A model generated the notes under the pieces. That model was not told where the DNA came from, searched no databases, and worked only from the letters and a program-made list of their open reading frames with translations. From Candidatus Eiseniibacteriota bacterium (GTDB lineage Bacteria; Eisenbacteria; RBG-16-71-46): 64,000 nt of DNA. How positions within the stretch are numbered: position 1 is the stretch's first letter; every line of letters begins with the position of its first letter. The stretch is taken from contig JBGPFC010000008.1 of the NCBI GenBank assembly GCA_041483195.1, positions 44,977 to 108,976 of the forward strand, written 5' to 3'. The translations under genes and the position numbers were made by a program. Positions 21,696 to 29,619 of this stretch are shown here, in pieces.

Positions 21696-22907
21696 CTACG
21701 GGCGCGACGGCGGAGCGGGCGGGGTCTTGAGTTGCTGGAGCTCCCGGTGGAGGCGCTGGATCTGCCGCTCGATCTCGGCGATGCGGCTCGGAGTGGGCTT
21801 CGAGTCGGCGGGAGCCACCGCCTCCGCCGCCCACTGCGGCATGGAATGCGGGGACTCGCCGAGCACGGCGCGGCCGACGTGCTGGATTTCGTCCCGCACC
21901 CAGACGAGATCGACGGTCGTGCCGGGCGGCGTGGATGCGACCCAGCGCGCGAGCTGGCCCGGGTACTCGACGCGCTCCCGGTCGAATCCCACGATGAGGT
22001 CGCCGCGCCGGAGCGCGAGCCGGGCGGCAGGCCCCGCGGGTTCGACGGTCTCGACGAGCGCGCCGATCGGCACGCTCAGGCCCGCCTCGGTCTCGCTCTG
22101 GACGCTCGCGCCACTGGTGCTCACGCCCAGGTATCCGTGGTGCACGCGTCCGTCGCGCCTGAGGCTCTCGTACACCGGACGCACGTTCTCGACGGGCAGC
22201 ACGAAGCTCATGCCCGCGGGGCGTCGCTCGCCATCGGGCGCGGCGCCGGCGCCGGGCACGCCGAGCTCGCCCTGGATGATGCCGACCAGCTCGCCCCGCG
22301 TGTTGAGCGCGGCGCCCCCGCTATTGCCCGGATAGACGGTGTTGGTGAGCTGCAGCAGCGCCATCCGCGGCTCGGGATAGCGATACGCGACGTACCCGAC
22401 GGACTGCGTGGGCTGCGCGCGGTACGAGGTCCCGAGCGCGATCGCCCAGTCACCCACCTGGGGCGGGCGCTCCTCCGCGAACCGAATCGGCGGAAGGCGG
22501 AGCTGGGGCACGCGGAGCAGCGCGAGATTGAACACCGGATCGACCCCGACGATGTCGGCGTCCACCTGAAGCCCGTTCACGCTGCGCACCAGGACCCGAT
22601 CCGCGCCCAGCACCACGCTCGCGGTGGTGAGGATCAGGTTCTCGTCGACGGCGACGCCCGATCCGACGCGGGTGTGCAACCGTTGCTCGGCACCGTGGGT
22701 GCGCGAGGCGGCCACCGCGACCGCCCGTTGCGCGAAGACGGAGACCACCGAGGCGCGTGCGGCGAGGGTGATCTGATCGACGTCGGTCTGAAGCGCGGAA
22801 AGAGCGCCCTGCGCGAATCCGGGCGCGGCATACACCAGCCCGATCCCGAGGCACAGAGACGCCAGCGTGCGGCGCACCGGCGTCACCCAGCGGAACCGGC
22901 GTCGCAT
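21696..22907 (-). CDS. HtrA/DegP-like S1C protein with PDZ domain (degenerate catalytic triad)
   Basis: Signal peptide, GSGVAVD, PGNSGGA, PDZ (GYLGVS, GPAARLALRRGD) and C-terminal coiled coil; the His and Asp positions are substituted. Confidence 0.85.
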   Translation of the reverse strand: MRRRFRWVTPVRRTLASLCLGIGLVYAAPGFAQGALSALQTDVDQITLAARASVVSVFAQRAVAVAASRTHGAEQRLHTRVGSGVAVDENLILTTASVVLGADRVLVRSVNGLQVDADIVGVDPVFNLALLRVPQLRLPPIRFAEERPPQVGDWAIALGTSYRAQPTQSVGYVAYRYPEPRMALLQLTNTVYPGNSGGAALNTRGELVGIIQGELGVPGAGAAPDGERRPAGMSFVLPVENVRPVYESLRRDGRVHHGYLGVSTSGASVQSETEAGLSVPIGALVETVEPAGPAARLALRRGDLIVGFDRERVEYPGQLARWVASTPPGTTVDLVWVRDEIQHVGRAVLGESPHSMPQWAAEAVAPADSKPTPSRIAEIERQIQRLHRELQQLKTPPAPPSRP

Positions 22908-22918
22908 GCGATGGCTCC

Positions 22919-23542
22919 TCAGAACGAGATCACGGCCTTCTCGCCCTGCACGCCATTCGGCGATCGCGACACCGTCGCACGGCCGCGATGAAGCGTCACG
23001 GGGTCGAGGATGAATTCGACGTCCTCGCTGTGATCGAAGAGGCTGTCGGAGATTGCGGCGCCCGACGCGTTCGCCAACAGCTGGCGGCCGGCCGCGGGCG
23101 CGCTCTGATCAAGCCGCGCGGAACCACGCGCGGCGACCGGGCTCACGATCTCGGGCTCGCGCAGCGCCCGCACGGAATTCCCGGTGGGGAGGGTGCGGTG
23201 GCCACGCGGCAACGCGCCGAGCCATGGGAGGACGAGCGACACCACGAGGGCCGCGAGCGCGGCGGCCGCCGTGATCGAGACCCAGTGCGGGCTCGCGGCC
23301 GGGAAGCGATCGGGCGCCGGAGCCACGCGCCGCGTGCGCGCCAGCACCCGGTCGAGCAGATCGGGGGCGGCTTCGAGGCGGGGCAGTGCGCCCGCGATCT
23401 CGACCGCCCGCGAGAATTCCTCGTACTCCTGCCGGCACGGGACGCATGCGCCGAGGTGCGCTTCCAGCCACTCGCGCTCGGCCTGCGTGGTCTCGTCGTC
23501 CCAGTAGGATCCAAACAGCCGCCGGGCCTGCCCGCATTTCAT
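22919..23542 (-). CDS. zf-HC2 anti-sigma factor (single TM)
   Basis: MKCGQARR...EAHLGACVPC (HxxxCxxC) plus a TM helix; ATGA overlap with the sigma factor stop. Confidence 0.88.
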   Translation of the reverse strand: MKCGQARRLFGSYWDDETTQAEREWLEAHLGACVPCRQEYEEFSRAVEIAGALPRLEAAPDLLDRVLARTRRVAPAPDRFPAASPHWVSITAAAALAALVVSLVLPWLGALPRGHRTLPTGNSVRALREPEIVSPVAARGSARLDQSAPAAGRQLLANASGAAISDSLFDHSEDVEFILDPVTLHRGRATVSRSPNGVQGEKAVISF

Positions 23543-24174
23543 GAGGAACCTTCCCGTCGAAGCAGCGGTTGAAGTTTTCGCTTCAGCATGCTCCGCGCAC
23601 GGTTGATGCGCGAGCGCACCGTGCCGCCCGGAATGCTGAGCACCTGTGCAATCTCCTCGTACGGCAACCCCTCGATATCGCGCAGCACCAGCGCCAGCCG
23701 GTATTTCTCCGGCACCGTCGCGATCGCGAGCCCCATCGCCTCCTGCAGCTGCTCGCGCTCCATCCGGCTCTCGCGGCCCTCGGTCGGATCCGCCAGCTGA
23801 ATCGCGCTGTCCTTGAGCGCCTCCTGGAGTGCGTCCAGGCTGAACCAGTTGCGTCTTCGTACTCGCCGGCGAATCTCGTTCTTCGCGAGGTTCGCCGCGA
23901 TCGTGAAGAGCCACGTCGAGAACTTGGAGCCGCGCCGGTAGTTTCTCCGGTGGACGAACACACGCACGAACACCTCCTGCGTGATGTCGTCTCCGCATTC
24001 GCGATCGTTCAGCACCCGGCCCACCAGGTTGATGACGCGACCTTGAAAGCGGCGGACCAACTCCGAGAACGCGCGCTCGTCATCCTCCGCGACGCGTCCC
24101 ATGAGATCCTCGTCGGAGAGGCTCAGGATGGTCGGTGCGGCGGTATCACGATCGGGCGCCACGGGCTCAGTCAC
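23539..24174 (-). CDS. ECF sigma-70 factor (RpoE-like)
   Basis: DDITQEVF, FSTWLFTIAAN, YEEIAQVL..PGGTVRSRINRAR. Confidence 0.93.
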   Translation of the reverse strand: MTEPVAPDRDTAAPTILSLSDEDLMGRVAEDDERAFSELVRRFQGRVINLVGRVLNDRECGDDITQEVFVRVFVHRRNYRRGSKFSTWLFTIAANLAKNEIRRRVRRRNWFSLDALQEALKDSAIQLADPTEGRESRMEREQLQEAMGLAIATVPEKYRLALVLRDIEGLPYEEIAQVLSIPGGTVRSRINRARSMLKRKLQPLLRREGSS

Positions 24175-24215: not shown

Positions 24216-25886
24216 TTAGGGAAGGCCATCGAGCTTCGATCTCACCCGGAGATTGCCGTGATCCGCGGCCAGGCTCCGGCGGTACTGATCGCGGGCCAAC
24301 TCGATGAGGCGCATGTCTTTGTAGACATCTCCCAGGTGCTCGTACACGACCGGGTCTCCCCCGCTCAGTCGGATCGCGCGCTCCAGCTCGCGCCGCGCGT
24401 CCTCGAGACGACCGAGCCGATAGTAGACCCATCCCATCGAGTCCACGTATGCCCCGTTGTCCGGCTCCCGCTCCACGGCCCGCCGGATGAGCGCCTCGGC
24501 CTCGGGAAGATCGCGATCGTGATCGGCGAGCAGGTAGCCGAGAAAATTGAGCGCAGAGGGACTGTCGGGCCTGGCTGCGAGCACATCGCGCGCCGCCCGC
24601 TCCGCACCCGCGAGGTCACCGAGTTGCTCGCGACAGTACGAGAGATCGAGCCCGATCTCGACTTCGGCGGGAAAACGGCGCAAAGTTTCGCTCCAGATCT
24701 GGGACGCCTCGGGGAAGTGCTTCTGCGTCTGCTCGATCCGCCCGAGCAGCAGCCGTGGCCCGAGCGAGTCGGGGGCCATCTCGATCGCGCGTCGCGCCGC
24801 CGCCAGTGCCGGCTCATTCTCTGCCGCCACCGCATGGGCCCGCGCCAGGAGCATCGGCCCCCGGTAGTCGTTCGGATGGCGTCGCGACCAGCCGTCGGCG
24901 AGCTGGACCGACTCGCGATTCCGCCGGTTCCGGGCCAGCACGTCGAGACGCCGGTCCAGATTCTCGGGATCGTCCGGCCCCAGCCGCGCGATGCGGTCGA
25001 GCAGCTGAAATCCCTCGGTCGATCGACCGAGCCTGAGCGCGAGATCGGCCTCGACGGCCAGTGCGTCAGCATCCTCGGGTCGCGCGCGCGTCACCCGCTG
25101 GGACTCCCGGTAGGCGTCCGCGAAGCGCTTCTCGTCGATCAGGAGCGCCACGAGCCGCTGGCGCGTCGCATCATCGCCATCGTGGATCTTCAGGTGGCGC
25201 TGATACAGATCGATCGCCTCGCGCGGATGGCCGAGGCCCTCTTCGATCCAGCCCTGCAGGAAGAGAACCCCGGGACGGAGCGGATTGCCTGCGGCCGCCT
25301 GGGTGAGCGCCGACTTCGCGGCCGCGAAACGCCCCAGGCGCGCCTCGGCCGCCGCGAGTTGGAACCAGGACTCGCCGTCCTCCTCGTCGAGCGCGACGAT
25401 GCGACGGTAGGCCCTGGCCACCACGTCGAATCGATCCAGTTCTTCGCCAATCCGGCCGAGCGTCTTGAGATATTCGACGTGATCGGAGTCGGCGGCGACC
25501 GCGGCTTCCAGCGCGTCCAGCGCCTCAGCCGAACGGCCCAGATTGAAGAGCGCGGAGCCTTCGAGCCACAGCGCGCGCGGGTCTCGCGCATCGATCGTCA
25601 GCGCTCGCTGTGCGAACTCGAGCGAACCCGACGCGTCACCCAGCCGCGCGGCCGTCTCGCTCAATCGTCGCGCAGTCGCGATGGATCGCGGGTCGAGAGA
25701 GAGGGCACGATAGTACTCGCCCAGCGCATCGGTCCCGGCGCCACGCTCTTCGAGCAGCCGGCCCTGCGCGTATCGGCGCAGGGCCTCCTCGCTCGGAAAC
25801 TGTGACGCCGCGGCGGCGGTGTCGCCGCCGGGCGCGGGGCTGGTGGTCGCGGCGCTGACCAACAGGCTGAGTGCGATATGCCACAT
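24216..25886 (-). CDS. Exported tetratricopeptide-repeat protein
   Basis: Signal peptide from ATG 25886, multiple TPRs, C-terminal ALNFLGYLLAD...YVDSMGWVYY...EHLGDVY block. Confidence 0.88.
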   Translation of the reverse strand: MWHIALSLLVSAATTSPAPGGDTAAAASQFPSEEALRRYAQGRLLEERGAGTDALGEYYRALSLDPRSIATARRLSETAARLGDASGSLEFAQRALTIDARDPRALWLEGSALFNLGRSAEALDALEAAVAADSDHVEYLKTLGRIGEELDRFDVVARAYRRIVALDEEDGESWFQLAAAEARLGRFAAAKSALTQAAAGNPLRPGVLFLQGWIEEGLGHPREAIDLYQRHLKIHDGDDATRQRLVALLIDEKRFADAYRESQRVTRARPEDADALAVEADLALRLGRSTEGFQLLDRIARLGPDDPENLDRRLDVLARNRRNRESVQLADGWSRRHPNDYRGPMLLARAHAVAAENEPALAAARRAIEMAPDSLGPRLLLGRIEQTQKHFPEASQIWSETLRRFPAEVEIGLDLSYCREQLGDLAGAERAARDVLAARPDSPSALNFLGYLLADHDRDLPEAEALIRRAVEREPDNGAYVDSMGWVYYRLGRLEDARRELERAIRLSGGDPVVYEHLGDVYKDMRLIELARDQYRRSLAADHGNLRVRSKLDGLP

Positions 25887-26042
25887 CGCATCGAGGGTAA
25901 CACGCGCCGCGTTCGCGCCGGAAGCGGCACGGCTGGTTCGCGCGCCCGAGACTCTGATGAGTGGAAAAGTTCTGCCATGACGAGAATTCGCGAAGGTGGT
26001 ATGAATGGACGGGACGTCCCCTCGGGTCGCAGGCAGGTGGCC

Positions 26043-27449
26043 ATGCAAACCTCAGAGCCCCAGGCGCGCATTCTCGTCGTCGACGACGAGCCGCAGACCG
26101 CGGTCGCCATCGAGCGGATGGTCGCGCACTTCGGTCACGATGTGGTGGGAGCCGACTCCGCGGAAGCCGCGATCCGTCACTTCACCGGGTCGTCGATCGA
26201 CGTCGTGCTCACCGATCTCAACCTGGGACGAACCGACGGACTCGAATTGCTCCGCCGCATGCAGGAGCACGATCCCACCGTCCCGGTCGTGCTCATTACG
26301 GGGTACGCCACCGCGAATTCGGCCATGGAGGCGATTCAGGCCGGCGCCTACGACTACCTTCCCAAGCCCCCCACGCTCGAAGCGATTGGCGCGCTGCTCC
26401 GGCGTGCGATCGAGAAGAAACGAAACACCGAGGCGAATCGGCGGAGCGAGCTGGTTCCCGAAGTGCCCGGTCTGCTCGACGAGATCGTCTCGGGCAAGTC
26501 ATCCCGCATGCTCGACGTCTACAAGGTGGTCGCGCGGGTTGCCATGGCCCGAAGCAGCGTGCTCATCCTCGGGGAAAGCGGAACCGGGAAGGAGCTGGTC
26601 GCGCGCGCCCTCCATCGCAGGAGCCCGCGCGCCGACCGCGACTTCGTCCCGGTCAACGTCTCGGCGATCCCGGAAGGGCTGCTGGAGAGTGAACTGTTCG
26701 GACACGTGCGGGGAGCCTTCACCGGCGCATCGTCCTCGCGCCGCGGCCTCTTCGATCAGGCCCACCTCGGCACGCTGTTCCTGGACGAGATCGGCGATCT
26801 CACCATCACGTTGCAGGCCAAGCTGCTGCGCGTGCTCCAGGAGCATCGCTTCAAGCCGGTCGGCAGCAACGAGGAAACGGAAGTGGACGTGCGCGTGGTC
26901 GGCGCGACCCATCGCAATCTCGAGGAGATGGTGCGGCTGGGGCGGTTTCGCGAGGATCTCTATTACCGGCTCAACGTGGTGTCGGTCTCGCTCCCGCCGC
27001 TGCGCGAACGGCGCGAGGACATTCCGATCCTGATCGAGCATTTCCTGCGCAAGTACTCGCAACAGACCGGGCGGCCCGCACCCGGAGTGTCGCCCGAGGC
27101 GATGCGCCGCGCGATGGACTTCCCATGGCCCGGCAACGTCCGCCAACTCGAAAACGTGATCGAGCGCGCGGTGGTGCTCTCCACACAGGGAGTGATCGGA
27201 CCCGAGGCCATGCCGCCGCGCCTGCCCTGGAGCGGCGGAGCGATCGCGGTGGATCGGGCCGAATTTCCGAGCCTCGACGAGATCATCCAGCGCTACGTCG
27301 AGGAGGTGCTCGCTCACACCGGGGGCAATCGTACGCGCGCGGCCATGATTCTCGGCATCTCCCGGCGCACGCTCCACAGGATGGCAGAGCGCGAGCGTCA
27401 GGGGGCCACGCGTGGCAGCGACGACTTGACCCACATCGGGCAAGACTGA
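26043..27449 (+). CDS. Sigma54-dependent response regulator (REC-AAA+-HTH; NtrC/AtoC family)
   Basis: ILVVDDE receiver, GESGTGKE, ELFGHVRGAFTGA, FLDEIG, WPGNVRQL, Fis-type HTH. Confidence 0.95.
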   Translation: MQTSEPQARILVVDDEPQTAVAIERMVAHFGHDVVGADSAEAAIRHFTGSSIDVVLTDLNLGRTDGLELLRRMQEHDPTVPVVLITGYATANSAMEAIQAGAYDYLPKPPTLEAIGALLRRAIEKKRNTEANRRSELVPEVPGLLDEIVSGKSSRMLDVYKVVARVAMARSSVLILGESGTGKELVARALHRRSPRADRDFVPVNVSAIPEGLLESELFGHVRGAFTGASSSRRGLFDQAHLGTLFLDEIGDLTITLQAKLLRVLQEHRFKPVGSNEETEVDVRVVGATHRNLEEMVRLGRFREDLYYRLNVVSVSLPPLRERREDIPILIEHFLRKYSQQTGRPAPGVSPEAMRRAMDFPWPGNVRQLENVIERAVVLSTQGVIGPEAMPPRLPWSGGAIAVDRAEFPSLDEIIQRYVEEVLAHTGGNRTRAAMILGISRRTLHRMAERERQGATRGSDDLTHIGQD

Positions 27450-27630
27450 CGCTCAAGTTCCAACACTCTCCTGCTACCCAAGTTGTAGCGGCACCCGCGC
27501 CGGGCTGGGACATTTCGGCGCTGCGACGCCAGACGACACGGCCCGCCCGGGAATAGATTGGCCGAGCGCGAGTCCCGCAACCCTTTACCATACGAAACGA
27601 TGAGAACTACGGCCTGCGATTCTCCATCGC

Positions 27631-27646
27631 TGGCATGTGAGTTGCG
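27631..27646 (+). promoter_or_regulatory. Sigma54 (-24/-12) promoter
   Basis: TGGCATGTGAGTTGCG gives an exact GG-N10-GC; IHF-like CAA-N4-TTA at 27578-27587; directly downstream of an enhancer-binding-protein gene. Confidence 0.8.
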
Positions 27647-27656
27647 GCTATCTTCT

Positions 27657-27877
27657 CTATGGGGTGGACAGTCTTCCCCGCATGGACGCGGGTACGTTTG
27701 GCAACCGAGCAGACGCCGCATGAGAAGTTGGGGCCACAGACCGAGGCGCGGCGGCGCGCAGGTTGCGATTGTCTGTCGTCACCGTGTGAGGGGCACGGAG
27801 AATCCGAGGGGCCTGTCCCGATCGCGTGTGGCGGCAGTTTGGGAGCGGGGGGCGAGTGCCCCCCGCTTCATTTTCTT
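27657..27877 (+). ncRNA. Candidate sigma54-dependent small RNA (about 220 nt)
   Basis: Bounded by the -24/-12 promoter and a plus-oriented intrinsic terminator; no credible CDS; several hairpins, including CCCGC-ATGGAC-GCGGG. Confidence 0.6.
27842..27877 (+). terminator. Rho-independent terminator
   Basis: GGAGCGGGGGGC-GAGT-GCCCCCCGCTTC followed by ATTTTCTT. Confidence 0.8.
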
Positions 27878-27900
27878 GTGACCCTCGGCCGCTCCGCGAG

Positions 27901-29619
27901 CTAGTCGTTCCGGGGCGCGCGTCGGGCCCGGCCGGGTCGGCGACCGTATGCCCCGGGCGCCGGTTTCGCGATCGCGGGTGGCGCTTCGCGCATGGCGGGC
28001 GCGGCCGGCTCATGCGCCGGCGAGTCCTCGTGCTCGTCCACGTCCTCGGGCGCTTCCGATCCGGTCGATTCTTCCGGCGTGGCCTCCGGCGCGTCCTCGA
28101 ACCTGACGGGTTCCGACAGGTCGGGCACGGCCTCGGGATGAAACTCCTCCTCGACTGGGGACGGCTCGATCGCATACGGATCGACGTGACGCTCCTCGAT
28201 CGGGCCCTCCGGTCTGCCCACTTCTTCGAGCTCGTCCTCCTCGTAAGCCGGCGGAACAGGTTCGATCTCGCGCGGCTCGACTTCCGGCGGCTCGATCGCG
28301 CGCCGACGCGGAGCCACCGGCGCCCGTAGCGGCGCCCGCAGCGGCGCACGTTCGACCACCGCCTCGCGCTCGACCACCGGCGCACGCTCGACTACCGGCG
28401 CGCGCTCGACCACCGGCTCCGCGCTCTCCACCATCGGAGCTTCGTCGCCACGCGGCCTCCGACCGCGACCGCCGCGTCGTCCGCGGCGCCGGCGCCGGCG
28501 CATCTCATCGCTCTCATCTTCGGTCACGACCTCGGCCTGCGATTCGACGGCAGGCGCGGGCGTGGTCACGTGCCCTTCCCGCGATTCACGGACGCGCGGC
28601 TCACGCTCGCGAGGTTCGCGCTCGCCTCCCTCTCGGGCCGGCCGCTCGCCCCGCTCGCTGCCCACGCGATCGAGCGCGTCGCGTGCCGCGGCCTGCTCCG
28701 CCTCCTTCTTGTTGTTGCCCTTGCCCTCGCCGAGCGCCCGCCGCCCGACCAGCACCTCGACCATGAAGTGCTTCGAATGATCGGGGCCCATCTCACTGCG
28801 GATCCGATAGACCGGATGCGTGCGGAACGTGCTCTGCACGTACTCCTGCAGGTGGCTCTTGTAGTTCGTGTGCCGCTTGTCCGCGACGATCTCAGGCGCG
28901 TCGCGCAGCAACCACCGCTGGATGAAGGCCCGAGCTGCCTCGAACCCCTGATCCAGGTAGATCGCGCCGATCACGGATTCGAATGCGTCGGCCAGGATCG
29001 AGAGACGCTGCCTCCCGCCCGATTCGATCTCGGAGTGGCTCATCAGCACGAAACGCCCGAGGCCCATCGCCAGCGCGCGTCGCGAGAGGATGGCCTTCGA
29101 CACCAGCAGCGACTTGGTCTTCGTGAGCTGGCCTTCGTGCTCCGTGGGATGTTGCCGGTACAACGACTCGCTGGTCACCAGTCCCAGCACCGAGTCGCCC
29201 AGGAACTCCAGACGCTCGTTGGATTCGCGGGGACCCTGCCCCGTCACGCTCAGGTAGGAGCGGTGGGTGAGCGCGAGCTTGAGCAGCTCGAGCCGATTGA
29301 AGGTGATGCCGTAGTGGCGCCCGAACTCGGCGAGGATGCGGGCTTCCTGCTCGCTGGTCCCGATTCTCGCGGCGCGCTGCTCAGGGGCGCGGCGCGGCGG
29401 CGCGAACAGCGACCGCAGCCAGCTCCATAGCGAGAATCCCCGGCGGGGCGGCGGCGGTTGCGGTCCGCGCGGCCGGCGCCTGCCCCCGCGGCGGCGGCGT
29501 CCTACGTCGCGGCCTTCATGGCCAGAGTCACGTTGTGTCCCCCGAACCCGAACGAGTTCGAGAGAGCGGCCCTCACGCGCAGCGCGCGGGCCTGGTTGGG
29601 AACGAAATCGAGGTCGCAT
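27901..29619 (-). CDS. rnc: Ribonuclease III with long disordered extensions (start uncertain)
   Basis: ALTHRS, NERLEFLGDSVL, ADAFESVIGAIYLDQG, dsRBD (NYKSHLQE...KKEAEQAAA). The only upstream ATG (29619) overlaps fabF. Confidence 0.9.
   Translation of the reverse strand: MRPRFRSQPGPRAAREGRSLELVRVRGTQRDSGHEGRDVGRRRRGGRRRPRGPQPPPPRRGFSLWSWLRSLFAPPRRAPEQRAARIGTSEQEARILAEFGRHYGITFNRLELLKLALTHRSYLSVTGQGPRESNERLEFLGDSVLGLVTSESLYRQHPTEHEGQLTKTKSLLVSKAILSRRALAMGLGRFVLMSHSEIESGGRQRLSILADAFESVIGAIYLDQGFEAARAFIQRWLLRDAPEIVADKRHTNYKSHLQEYVQSTFRTHPVYRIRSEMGPDHSKHFMVEVLVGRRALGEGKGNNKKEAEQAAARDALDRVGSERGERPAREGGEREPREREPRVRESREGHVTTPAPAVESQAEVVTEDESDEMRRRRRRGRRGGRGRRPRGDEAPMVESAEPVVERAPVVERAPVVEREAVVERAPLRAPLRAPVAPRRRAIEPPEVEPREIEPVPPAYEEDELEEVGRPEGPIEERHVDPYAIEPSPVEEEFHPEAVPDLSEPVRFEDAPEATPEESTGSEAPEDVDEHEDSPAHEPAAPAMREAPPAIAKPAPGAYGRRPGRARRAPRND
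28310..28420 (-). repeat. Imperfect 18-bp and 12-bp coding tandem repeats in the rnc C-terminal tail
   Basis: Encodes EPVVER-APVVER-APVVER-EAVVER-APLR-APLR. Confidence 0.75.

Follow-up and report, generated by a model that had tools for sequence, protein, structure and literature searches.

What kind of gene, if any, occupies the gap between a sigma-54 activator gene and the convergent RNase III gene (rnc) in the genome of an uncultured Candidatus Eisenbacteria bacterium from soil and groundwater? We addressed this question for positions 27450-27900 of a 64,000-nt stretch of contig JBGPFC010000008.1 (the whole stretch is called the window below), which belongs to a metagenome-assembled genome (MAG) of 4.17 Mb, 70% G+C and 96.8% completeness. 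The gap follows a gene for a REC-AAA+-HTH sigma-54 activator, or bacterial enhancer-binding protein (bEBP), and holds a complete enhancer-dependent unit. We regard it as highly likely that this unit is a single-copy gene for a non-coding small RNA (sRNA) driven by sigma-54 and a bEBP, and we infer from the sequence that it is actually transcribed, that the adjacent bEBP activates it and where its 5' end lies. An earlier note, made from the letters of the window, had proposed a sigma-54-dependent sRNA downstream of its probable NtrC-family activator. This proposal is supported by a conserved RNA core, a conserved promoter, palindromes upstream of it, an IHF-like site, the co-occurrence of the RNA and bEBP genes, the presence of rpoN and the GAFTGA motif of the bEBP. 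The coordinates of the features are collected in Table 1.

Conserved core and variable leader of the predicted RNA

In a DNA search against 40 related genomes, only the 3' part of the gap (27770-27886) was conserved, with 77-84% identity. Of the 24 other genomes of the family, 11 had a match to this block, covering ten further genera, and in these matches it always lay between a bEBP ortholog and a convergent rnc. The core of ~105 nt (27773-27879) is kept in 38 distinct Eisenbacteria loci. A covariance model recovered full-length copies in 27 of 80 rnc-anchored loci of Candidatus Eisenbacteria MAGs. Of 59 other family genomes, 34 each gave a single match to this model (E <= 4.4e-11 in 31 cases); elsewhere in the phylum, nine genomes gave weak matches of 27-36 bits.

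The core has a conserved predicted fold. On a structure-blind MAFFT alignment of 12 copies, RNAalifold returned three parts: a closing helix of 8-10 bp that encloses inner helices, a loop of 13 nt and a terminator hairpin. The apical loop carries an invariant UCCGAGGGGCC at 27803-27813, and the strands of the closing helix P1, CUGUCG and CG-R-CAG, are invariant or nearly so. Among 33 distinct sequences, 94.9% of the cells were paired and 18 of the 34 pairs changed on both sides. The observed pairing and covariation were matched by none of 500 shuffles, and pairing fell to 45-55% when the partners were slid by 1-3 columns. The single-sequence fold of the whole predicted sRNA in the window has an energy of -108.3 kcal/mol (z = -2.37).

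The earlier note had also described a 12-bp GC hairpin with a U-tract on the plus strand only. The hairpin is indeed there, with 12 pairs at 27842-27869, 10 of them G-C, and 10 of the 12 pairs change on both sides among relatives; no terminator-like site was found on the minus strand in 27000-28400. The scan against Rfam 15 that had been suggested brought no family to its gathering threshold: the best match was asX1 with 25.9 bits (threshold 70), then FinP with 16.2 (threshold 45), both at the level of chance, and nothing else appeared at E <= 10. Since no Rfam 15 family matches, these comparisons mark the RNA as a new sRNA family of an already familiar design.

Upstream of the core, the predicted RNA is variable. 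The distance from the estimated transcription start to P1 ranges from 10 to 139 nt over 37 loci, the leaders cannot be aligned between genera, and a relative from the same genus has an 18-nt leader versus 116 nt in the window. Because leader length varies and does not align, we take the minimal RNA to be ~122 nt and the leader of the window to be a lineage-specific expansion. Compared with loci L002 and L015 (GTGGACAG followed by ACCGAGG), ~80-100 nt have seemingly been inserted in the window between GGACAG and ACCGAGG; the insertion is bordered by the similar words GGACAG and CCACAG, and a GC-rich hairpin has been gained as well. Enrichment of k-mers in the leaders was driven by close relatives and did not single out the loop motif. 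A separate observation concerns CGA[GA]N, a motif resembling the CGAGG of the loop, which 15 of 37 loci have between -3 and +13 relative to the estimated start, versus 3.7 expected, an excess inflated by kinship. The window has no such motif at its predicted 5' end, and its ACCGAGG is internal (27740-27746).

Promoter, enhancer sites and the activator cassette

An exact -24/-12 promoter had been claimed at 27631-27645. The letters are as claimed, and of the 38 distinct loci with the conserved RNA, 37 have TGGCAY-N6-TG(C/A) upstream of it (TGC at the end in 36 cases, TGA in one); the remaining locus is truncated 74 nt upstream. Promoter conservation and covariation, both of which the earlier note had put forward as tests, thus came out in favour of the RNA gene.

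Palindromes with the consensus GNGACA-N3-TGTCNC were scored out of 10, and their distances were counted from the first T of TGGCA. Of 37 loci, 34 had sites with a score of 9/10 or more, 62 in all versus 0.52 expected, with clusters at -215, -194 and -125. Most relatives have such a site at -212 to -227 and several at -191 to -196, and sites of the same quality lie at -112 to -136, mainly at -124 to -127. Of the two enhancer half-sites named previously, TGGGACA at 27506 is present and forms part of the position-fixed -125 palindrome, whereas TGCGACG at 27522, also present, lies outside any conserved site. The IHF-like CAA-N4-TTA at 27578-27587 had been noted correctly too, and the motif recurs at a fixed distance from the promoter: YAA-N4-TTR is found at -54 to -48 in 18 of 37 loci, versus 0.8 expected from shuffles. 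The bEBP would bind the palindromes and IHF the CAA-N4-TTA. Among the 49 matches to the promoter pattern in the genome, only the one belonging to the RNA has two palindrome-like sites at canonical spacing; five others have single or mis-spaced sites of 8-9/10, about the chance level, in what is a weak test given that the sites of the window are themselves degenerate.

There is also a likeness between the RNA and its enhancer sites. The invariant P1 strands CUGUCGYC/GRCGRCAG share hexamers with the half-sites TGTCGC/GCGACA, in everted order and ~50 nt apart, and GACAG occurs in 10 of 37 leaders (3.4 expected). The likeness of P1 to the half-sites may be a coincidence, an alternative pairing or a second protein contact.

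The protein encoded upstream has the make-up of an orphan response-regulator bEBP. Pfam matches cover Response_reg (65-171), Sigma54_activat (205-370) and HTH_8 (471-501), and the translation shows GAFTGA, Walker A GESGTGKE and Walker B LFLDEIGD; the protein stays below every NCBIfam equivalog cut-off. Its true start is probably the ATG at 26043, because relatives align only from about residue 24-78 (most from 40-64) and because the earlier start overlaps the divergent TPR gene. No histidine kinase lies beside it, the upstream neighbour being that TPR gene. Judging from the arrangement and conservation of the locus, this bEBP is probably the activator of the RNA gene.

Of the factors whose genes the earlier note had advised looking for, rpoN (Sigma54_DBD, 213.6 bits), three HU/IHF-family genes and csrA were all found. 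A search for hfq (PF17209) in the 96.8%-complete genome gave no match. The genome further holds 22 strong bEBP matches. On its contig C2 (134976-137712, L095), a PAS histidine kinase gene comes after csrA, and ~2 kb further another sigma-54 activator domain is encoded.

The bEBP and RNA genes come and go together. We took a census of the 61 rnc loci in which the sequence continues for 3 kb or more past the gene: 23 had both, 36 had neither, one had the RNA only and one, by the first covariance model, the bEBP only. In the last of these (L033), a second model detected a diverged RNA copy with CCGAGGGG in its loop (23.4 bits); it was the sole further copy among the 38 cassette-free or unmatched loci searched with that model. 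In 22 loci free of the cassette (and one more by a weak match), rnc is followed at once by the TPR gene, read from the same strand; no cassette remnant is seen in L016, a close relative with an rnc 86% identical. By this comparison, some lineages have and others lack a ~2-kb unit of bEBP and RNA, which sits between rnc and the TPR gene and is read from the other strand. Because they are gained or lost as a unit, the two genes would work together. Conversely, since cassette-free relatives have the TPR gene straight after rnc, nearness to rnc appears to be positional. The link to the adjoining RNase III gene suggested in the earlier note is thus not upheld: the rnc flank looks like the insertion place of the cassette and not like a functional link.

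Several points weigh against reading the locus as an sRNA gene under the control of its neighbour. In a single genome, the promoter pattern TGGCAY-N6-TGC is at chance level (one match in the window versus 0.78 expected, 49 genome-wide versus ~42), and the significance of the promoter derives from its conservation across relatives, not from the window's genome. The three enhancer sites of the window are degenerate (8/10, 7/10 and 8/10). The alignment behind the pair counts was fitted to the model, and many of its sequences are related. Finally, adjacency of the activator is not obligatory, because locus L019 (5612-7877, Candidatus Eisenbacteria bacterium RBG_16_71_46) keeps the RNA, the promoter and the palindromes with no bEBP gene before the TPR gene; there, either the activator gene may lie at another place or the RNA may have been orphaned.

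Table 1. Predicted features of the sRNA locus and its neighbouring genes (window coordinates; enhancer distances from the first T of TGGCA)
Feature	Position	Strand	Basis and remarks
TPR protein gene	24216-26048	divergent from bEBP	upstream neighbour of the bEBP gene
Orphan response-regulator bEBP (REC, sigma-54 AAA+, AAA lid, Fis-type HTH)	25878-27449	+	Pfam
Upstream enhancer site (-213), GCGACGACTTGACCC	27418-27432	.	8/10; within the coding sequence of the bEBP, at its 3' end
Possible third enhancer site (-193), GGGCAAGACTGACGC	27438-27452	.	7/10 by manual count; spans the bEBP stop; weak
Proximal enhancer site (-124), GGGACATTTCGGCGC	27507-27521	.	8/10; includes TGGGACA
IHF-like site CAA-N4-TTA	27578-27587	.	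at -53 from the first T of the promoter
Sigma-54 promoter TGGCAT-N5-TTGC (-24 GG, -12 GC), TGGCATGTGAGTTGC	27631-27645	+	sole pattern match in the window, and conservation
Whole predicted sRNA	27657-27879	+	ends inferred from promoter and terminator; ~223 nt here, 122-251 nt in relatives
Lineage-specific 5' leader	27657-27772	+	~116 nt; start estimated from promoter geometry
Conserved long bulged hairpin	27773-27837	+	P1 = 27773-27780 with 27830-27837, plus inner helices
Intrinsic terminator	27842-27879	+	12-pair stem, GAGT loop, then ATTTTCTTGT
RNase III gene (rnc)	27901-29619	-	Pfam domains; convergent with the RNA gene

Proposed mechanism and rival explanations

By laying established knowledge of enhancer-dependent promoters onto this conserved anatomy, we propose how the cassette could work. 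Sigma-54 RNA polymerase would sit on TGGCAT-N5-TTGC as a closed complex, and the bEBP on the palindromes ~125, 194 and 215 bp upstream, two of which lie in or at the end of its own coding sequence. Upon phosphorylation of the receiver, DNA looping over an IHF-type bend at about -53 would bring the bEBP to the polymerase, and the bEBP would spend ATP to open the promoter. The RNA would start near 27657 and end at the intrinsic terminator, giving a product of ~223 nt made of the lineage-variable leader and a ~105-nt module, in which a bulged hairpin showing the invariant G-rich loop is followed by the terminator.

As for the function of the RNA, we propose that it may act in trans without Hfq, with its loop UCCGAGGGGCC pairing with C-rich mRNA sites (such as GGCCCCUCGGA), and we would put the chances for and against this at about equal. 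When a loop is invariant and its stem covaries, this usually marks an effector site. Pairing in trans would be independent of Hfq, whose gene was not found in this genome. Of the features that go with an Hfq-dependent sRNA, the locus has the terminator and the genome shows no hfq.

Our searches for targets found none and speak against such pairing. Duplexes of the loop with 1709 crudely called translation-start regions showed no excess over those of 15 shuffled loops. The best of them, with the mdh leader (-33.8 kcal/mol), was rejected as a target since the complementarity is lost in 18 relatives (13 with the RNA and 5 without it); this site also overlaps a hairpin resembling the terminator of the upstream gene. 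The second-best duplex of the scan was with the leader of a GGDEF gene. Feedback pairing with the 5' region of the bEBP was likewise discarded, as the mean z of +0.24 over 23 loci gave no signal. Exact complements of the loop in the genome were at about chance level, and those inspected lay inside coding regions. A non-coding 11-mer match on contig C4 (25834) had no Rfam match at E <= 0.01, and the two open reading frames (ORFs) flanking it had no Pfam match.

Considered jointly, the bEBP would have a one-promoter regulon, with the RNA as its only enhancer-dependent output; the cassette would be a self-contained ~2-kb converter of protein phosphorylation into RNA-based regulation, inserted or lost as a unit in one family; and the invariant, G-rich 13-nt loop would seek C-rich sites without Hfq. 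We hold this combined picture only tentatively, as it is rather less probable than its negation. If true, it would be a mirror image of the C-rich-loop sRNAs of Firmicutes and the first riboregulator family described for the Candidatus Eisenbacteria phylum.

The main rival, improbable in our estimate and still deserving real weight, is an RNA that binds or sequesters a protein: the loop, together with the 5' CGAGG-like motif in some lineages, would bind CsrA, perhaps one of altered specificity, or another protein, which would be titrated when the bEBP is active. The genome does contain csrA, and FliW, the usual protein antagonist of CsrA, was not found in it. Next to the loop stands a CACGGA (A-N-GGA, 27794-27799), which a manual count on the alignment found in 32 of 33 sequences; P1 and the loop are absolutely invariant, more so than pairing alone would demand; and the excess of CGA[GA]N at predicted 5' ends would fit a protein site as well. 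The four GGA motifs on which the earlier note had built, at 27666, 27684, 27797 and 27842, are all in place, but they are not enriched (4 versus 4.9 expected from shuffles) and only one is conserved, the other three falling in the lineage-specific leader or in the terminator stem. Similarly, the CCCGC-ATGGAC-GCGGG hairpin (27677-27692) that it had read as a typical CsrA/RsmA site exists, but it sits in the non-conserved leader. The RNA does not show the many GGA motifs, mostly in hairpin loops, of the CsrB/RsmZ type, and one or two sites would be few for a sponge. Moreover, 52 of 54 family genomes encode CsrA, among them 20 of 20 without the RNA, so the RNA would not be the general antagonist of CsrA. 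In a published study, Eisenbacteria CsrA homologs are mostly predicted to be non-functional in a standard GGA-reporter model (PMC13443453), and a CsrA so atypical by prediction leaves space for a different specificity.

The remaining alternatives appear far less probable. One is that the block is mainly the 3' untranslated region and terminator of the bEBP mRNA, yielding a small RNA only by processing, which we consider very unlikely. Between the bEBP stop and the 27842 hairpin there is only a weak terminator-like site (27751), and bEBP transcripts probably reach the same terminator. However, a plain terminator needs no 65-nt covarying hairpin with an invariant loop, the fixed spacing of the promoter motif and palindromes (34-37 of 37 loci) and of the IHF-like site (18 of 37) would be unexplained without a promoter, and L019 has the RNA and promoter with no bEBP gene. 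Slightly less likely still is antisense control of rnc by read-through of the terminator into the 3' end of the convergent gene. Only 22 nt separate the end of the RNA gene from the rnc stop codon, and the convergent arrangement is maintained wherever the cassette occurs; yet a strong 12-pair terminator with a U-tract stands ahead of rnc, inspection of the alignment revealed no anti-terminator alternative, and the TPR gene lying right after rnc in cassette-free relatives makes the neighbourhood resemble an insertion site. The least credible option is a small protein-coding mRNA. An ORF for 81 residues, cysteine among them (27659-27904), is open and begins 2 nt past the predicted transcription start. 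Pfam has no match for it, relatives lack the leader needed for its N-terminal half or have one that cannot be aligned, and it reads through the terminator. Stop codons interrupt frames 0, 1 and 2 of the core in 20, 18 and 30 of 38 loci, respectively, and the ORF of the window is in frame 0. By this comparison the RNA has no conserved reading frame, in agreement with the earlier statement that its ~220 nt hold no credible coding sequence.

Related systems and genomic surroundings

The preferred interpretation, an sRNA gene activated by the bEBP encoded before it, has precedents. The closest layout is that of nla19-pxr in Myxococcus xanthus. As described in passages of PMC5568312, Pxr is a 108-nt sRNA with several stem-loops encoded downstream of nla19, whose product is a sigma-54-dependent response regulator, and apparently transcribed from a sigma-54 promoter in a 262-nt intergenic region; the published pxr construct takes in the last 167 nt of nla19. 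In both loci, as far as these passages describe pxr, a regulator gene is followed by a spacer with the promoter (~180 nt here, holding enhancer sites as well) and by a structured sRNA, and the extension of the enhancer sites into the 3' end of the Eisenbacteria regulator gene can be likened to that construct. The two cases come from different phyla, Eisenbacteria and Myxococcota, and, compared by description only, the Eisenbacteria RNA differs from Pxr in being one long bulged hairpin plus terminator with a variable leader.

In Pseudomonas, crcZ lies directly after cbrB, and CrcZ sequesters Hfq/Crc through repeated A-rich motifs, whereas the Eisenbacteria RNA has no repeated motif and comes from a genome in which hfq was not found. 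CbrB has a partner kinase, CbrA, and dozens of targets; the Eisenbacteria bEBP has no adjacent kinase, and its genome showed no further promoter with sites laid out in this way. The shared logic is that of enhancer subsites, IHF and sigma-54: in the relevant passages of PMC6296734, CbrB is an NtrC-family regulator that activates a sigma-54 sRNA promoter through several upstream subsites with the help of IHF. As far as layout goes, the activator-then-sRNA arrangement that the earlier note had recognised in Pxr and cbrB-crcZ is the one found here.

The Qrr sRNAs of Vibrio are Hfq-dependent, and GlmY is a decoy for RapZ. LuxO-Qrr in Vibrio and GlrR-GlmY in E. coli are described as response-regulator bEBPs with a sigma-54-dependent sRNA as their main output (PMC10162802, PMC4152352). 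They resemble the Eisenbacteria locus in this output, and the Eisenbacteria RNA matches no Rfam family.

Another independent case besides Myxococcus and Pseudomonas suggests that the design of a bEBP followed by its sRNA is widespread or recurrent. The locus offers a well-defined, testable regulatory module, in which an uncharacterised bEBP comes with a consensus for its predicted binding sites and the promoter geometry is rigid, and a new structured RNA family of ~38 distinct members suited to Rfam. Furthermore, the presence or absence of the cassette among close relatives provides natural contrasts for finding targets. We know of no cultured member of Candidatus Eisenbacteria. Full-text literature searches returned no paper joining the name of the phylum with sigma-54 or RpoN, and joined it with "small RNA" only in a CsrA study.

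Regarding the surroundings, beyond the TPR gene the minus strand carries an envelope-stress-type cluster (21696-24174) with an ECF sigma factor, a zf-HC2 anti-sigma-like protein and an HtrA-type protease with PDZ. The RNase III of the window has a C-terminal tail of ~250 residues past its dsRBD, the Pfam domains stopping at residue 317 of 572. These tails vary in length among relatives, where 700-1900 nt separate the domain match from the RNA or the TPR gene.

The RNase III gene of the window is 74-90% identical to the rnc of many Candidatus Eisenbacteria records. An RNase III 60-88% identical to that of the window was also seen on seven contigs labelled as other phyla (L020, L026, L030, L060, L072, L088 and L091), whose labels are Limnocylindria, Udaeobacter, Saccharimonadaceae, Verrucomicrobiia, Methylomirabilota, Binatia and Dormiibacterota. 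These are probably mis-binned or mislabelled Eisenbacteria contigs, and two of them, L026 and L030, carry the RNA too.

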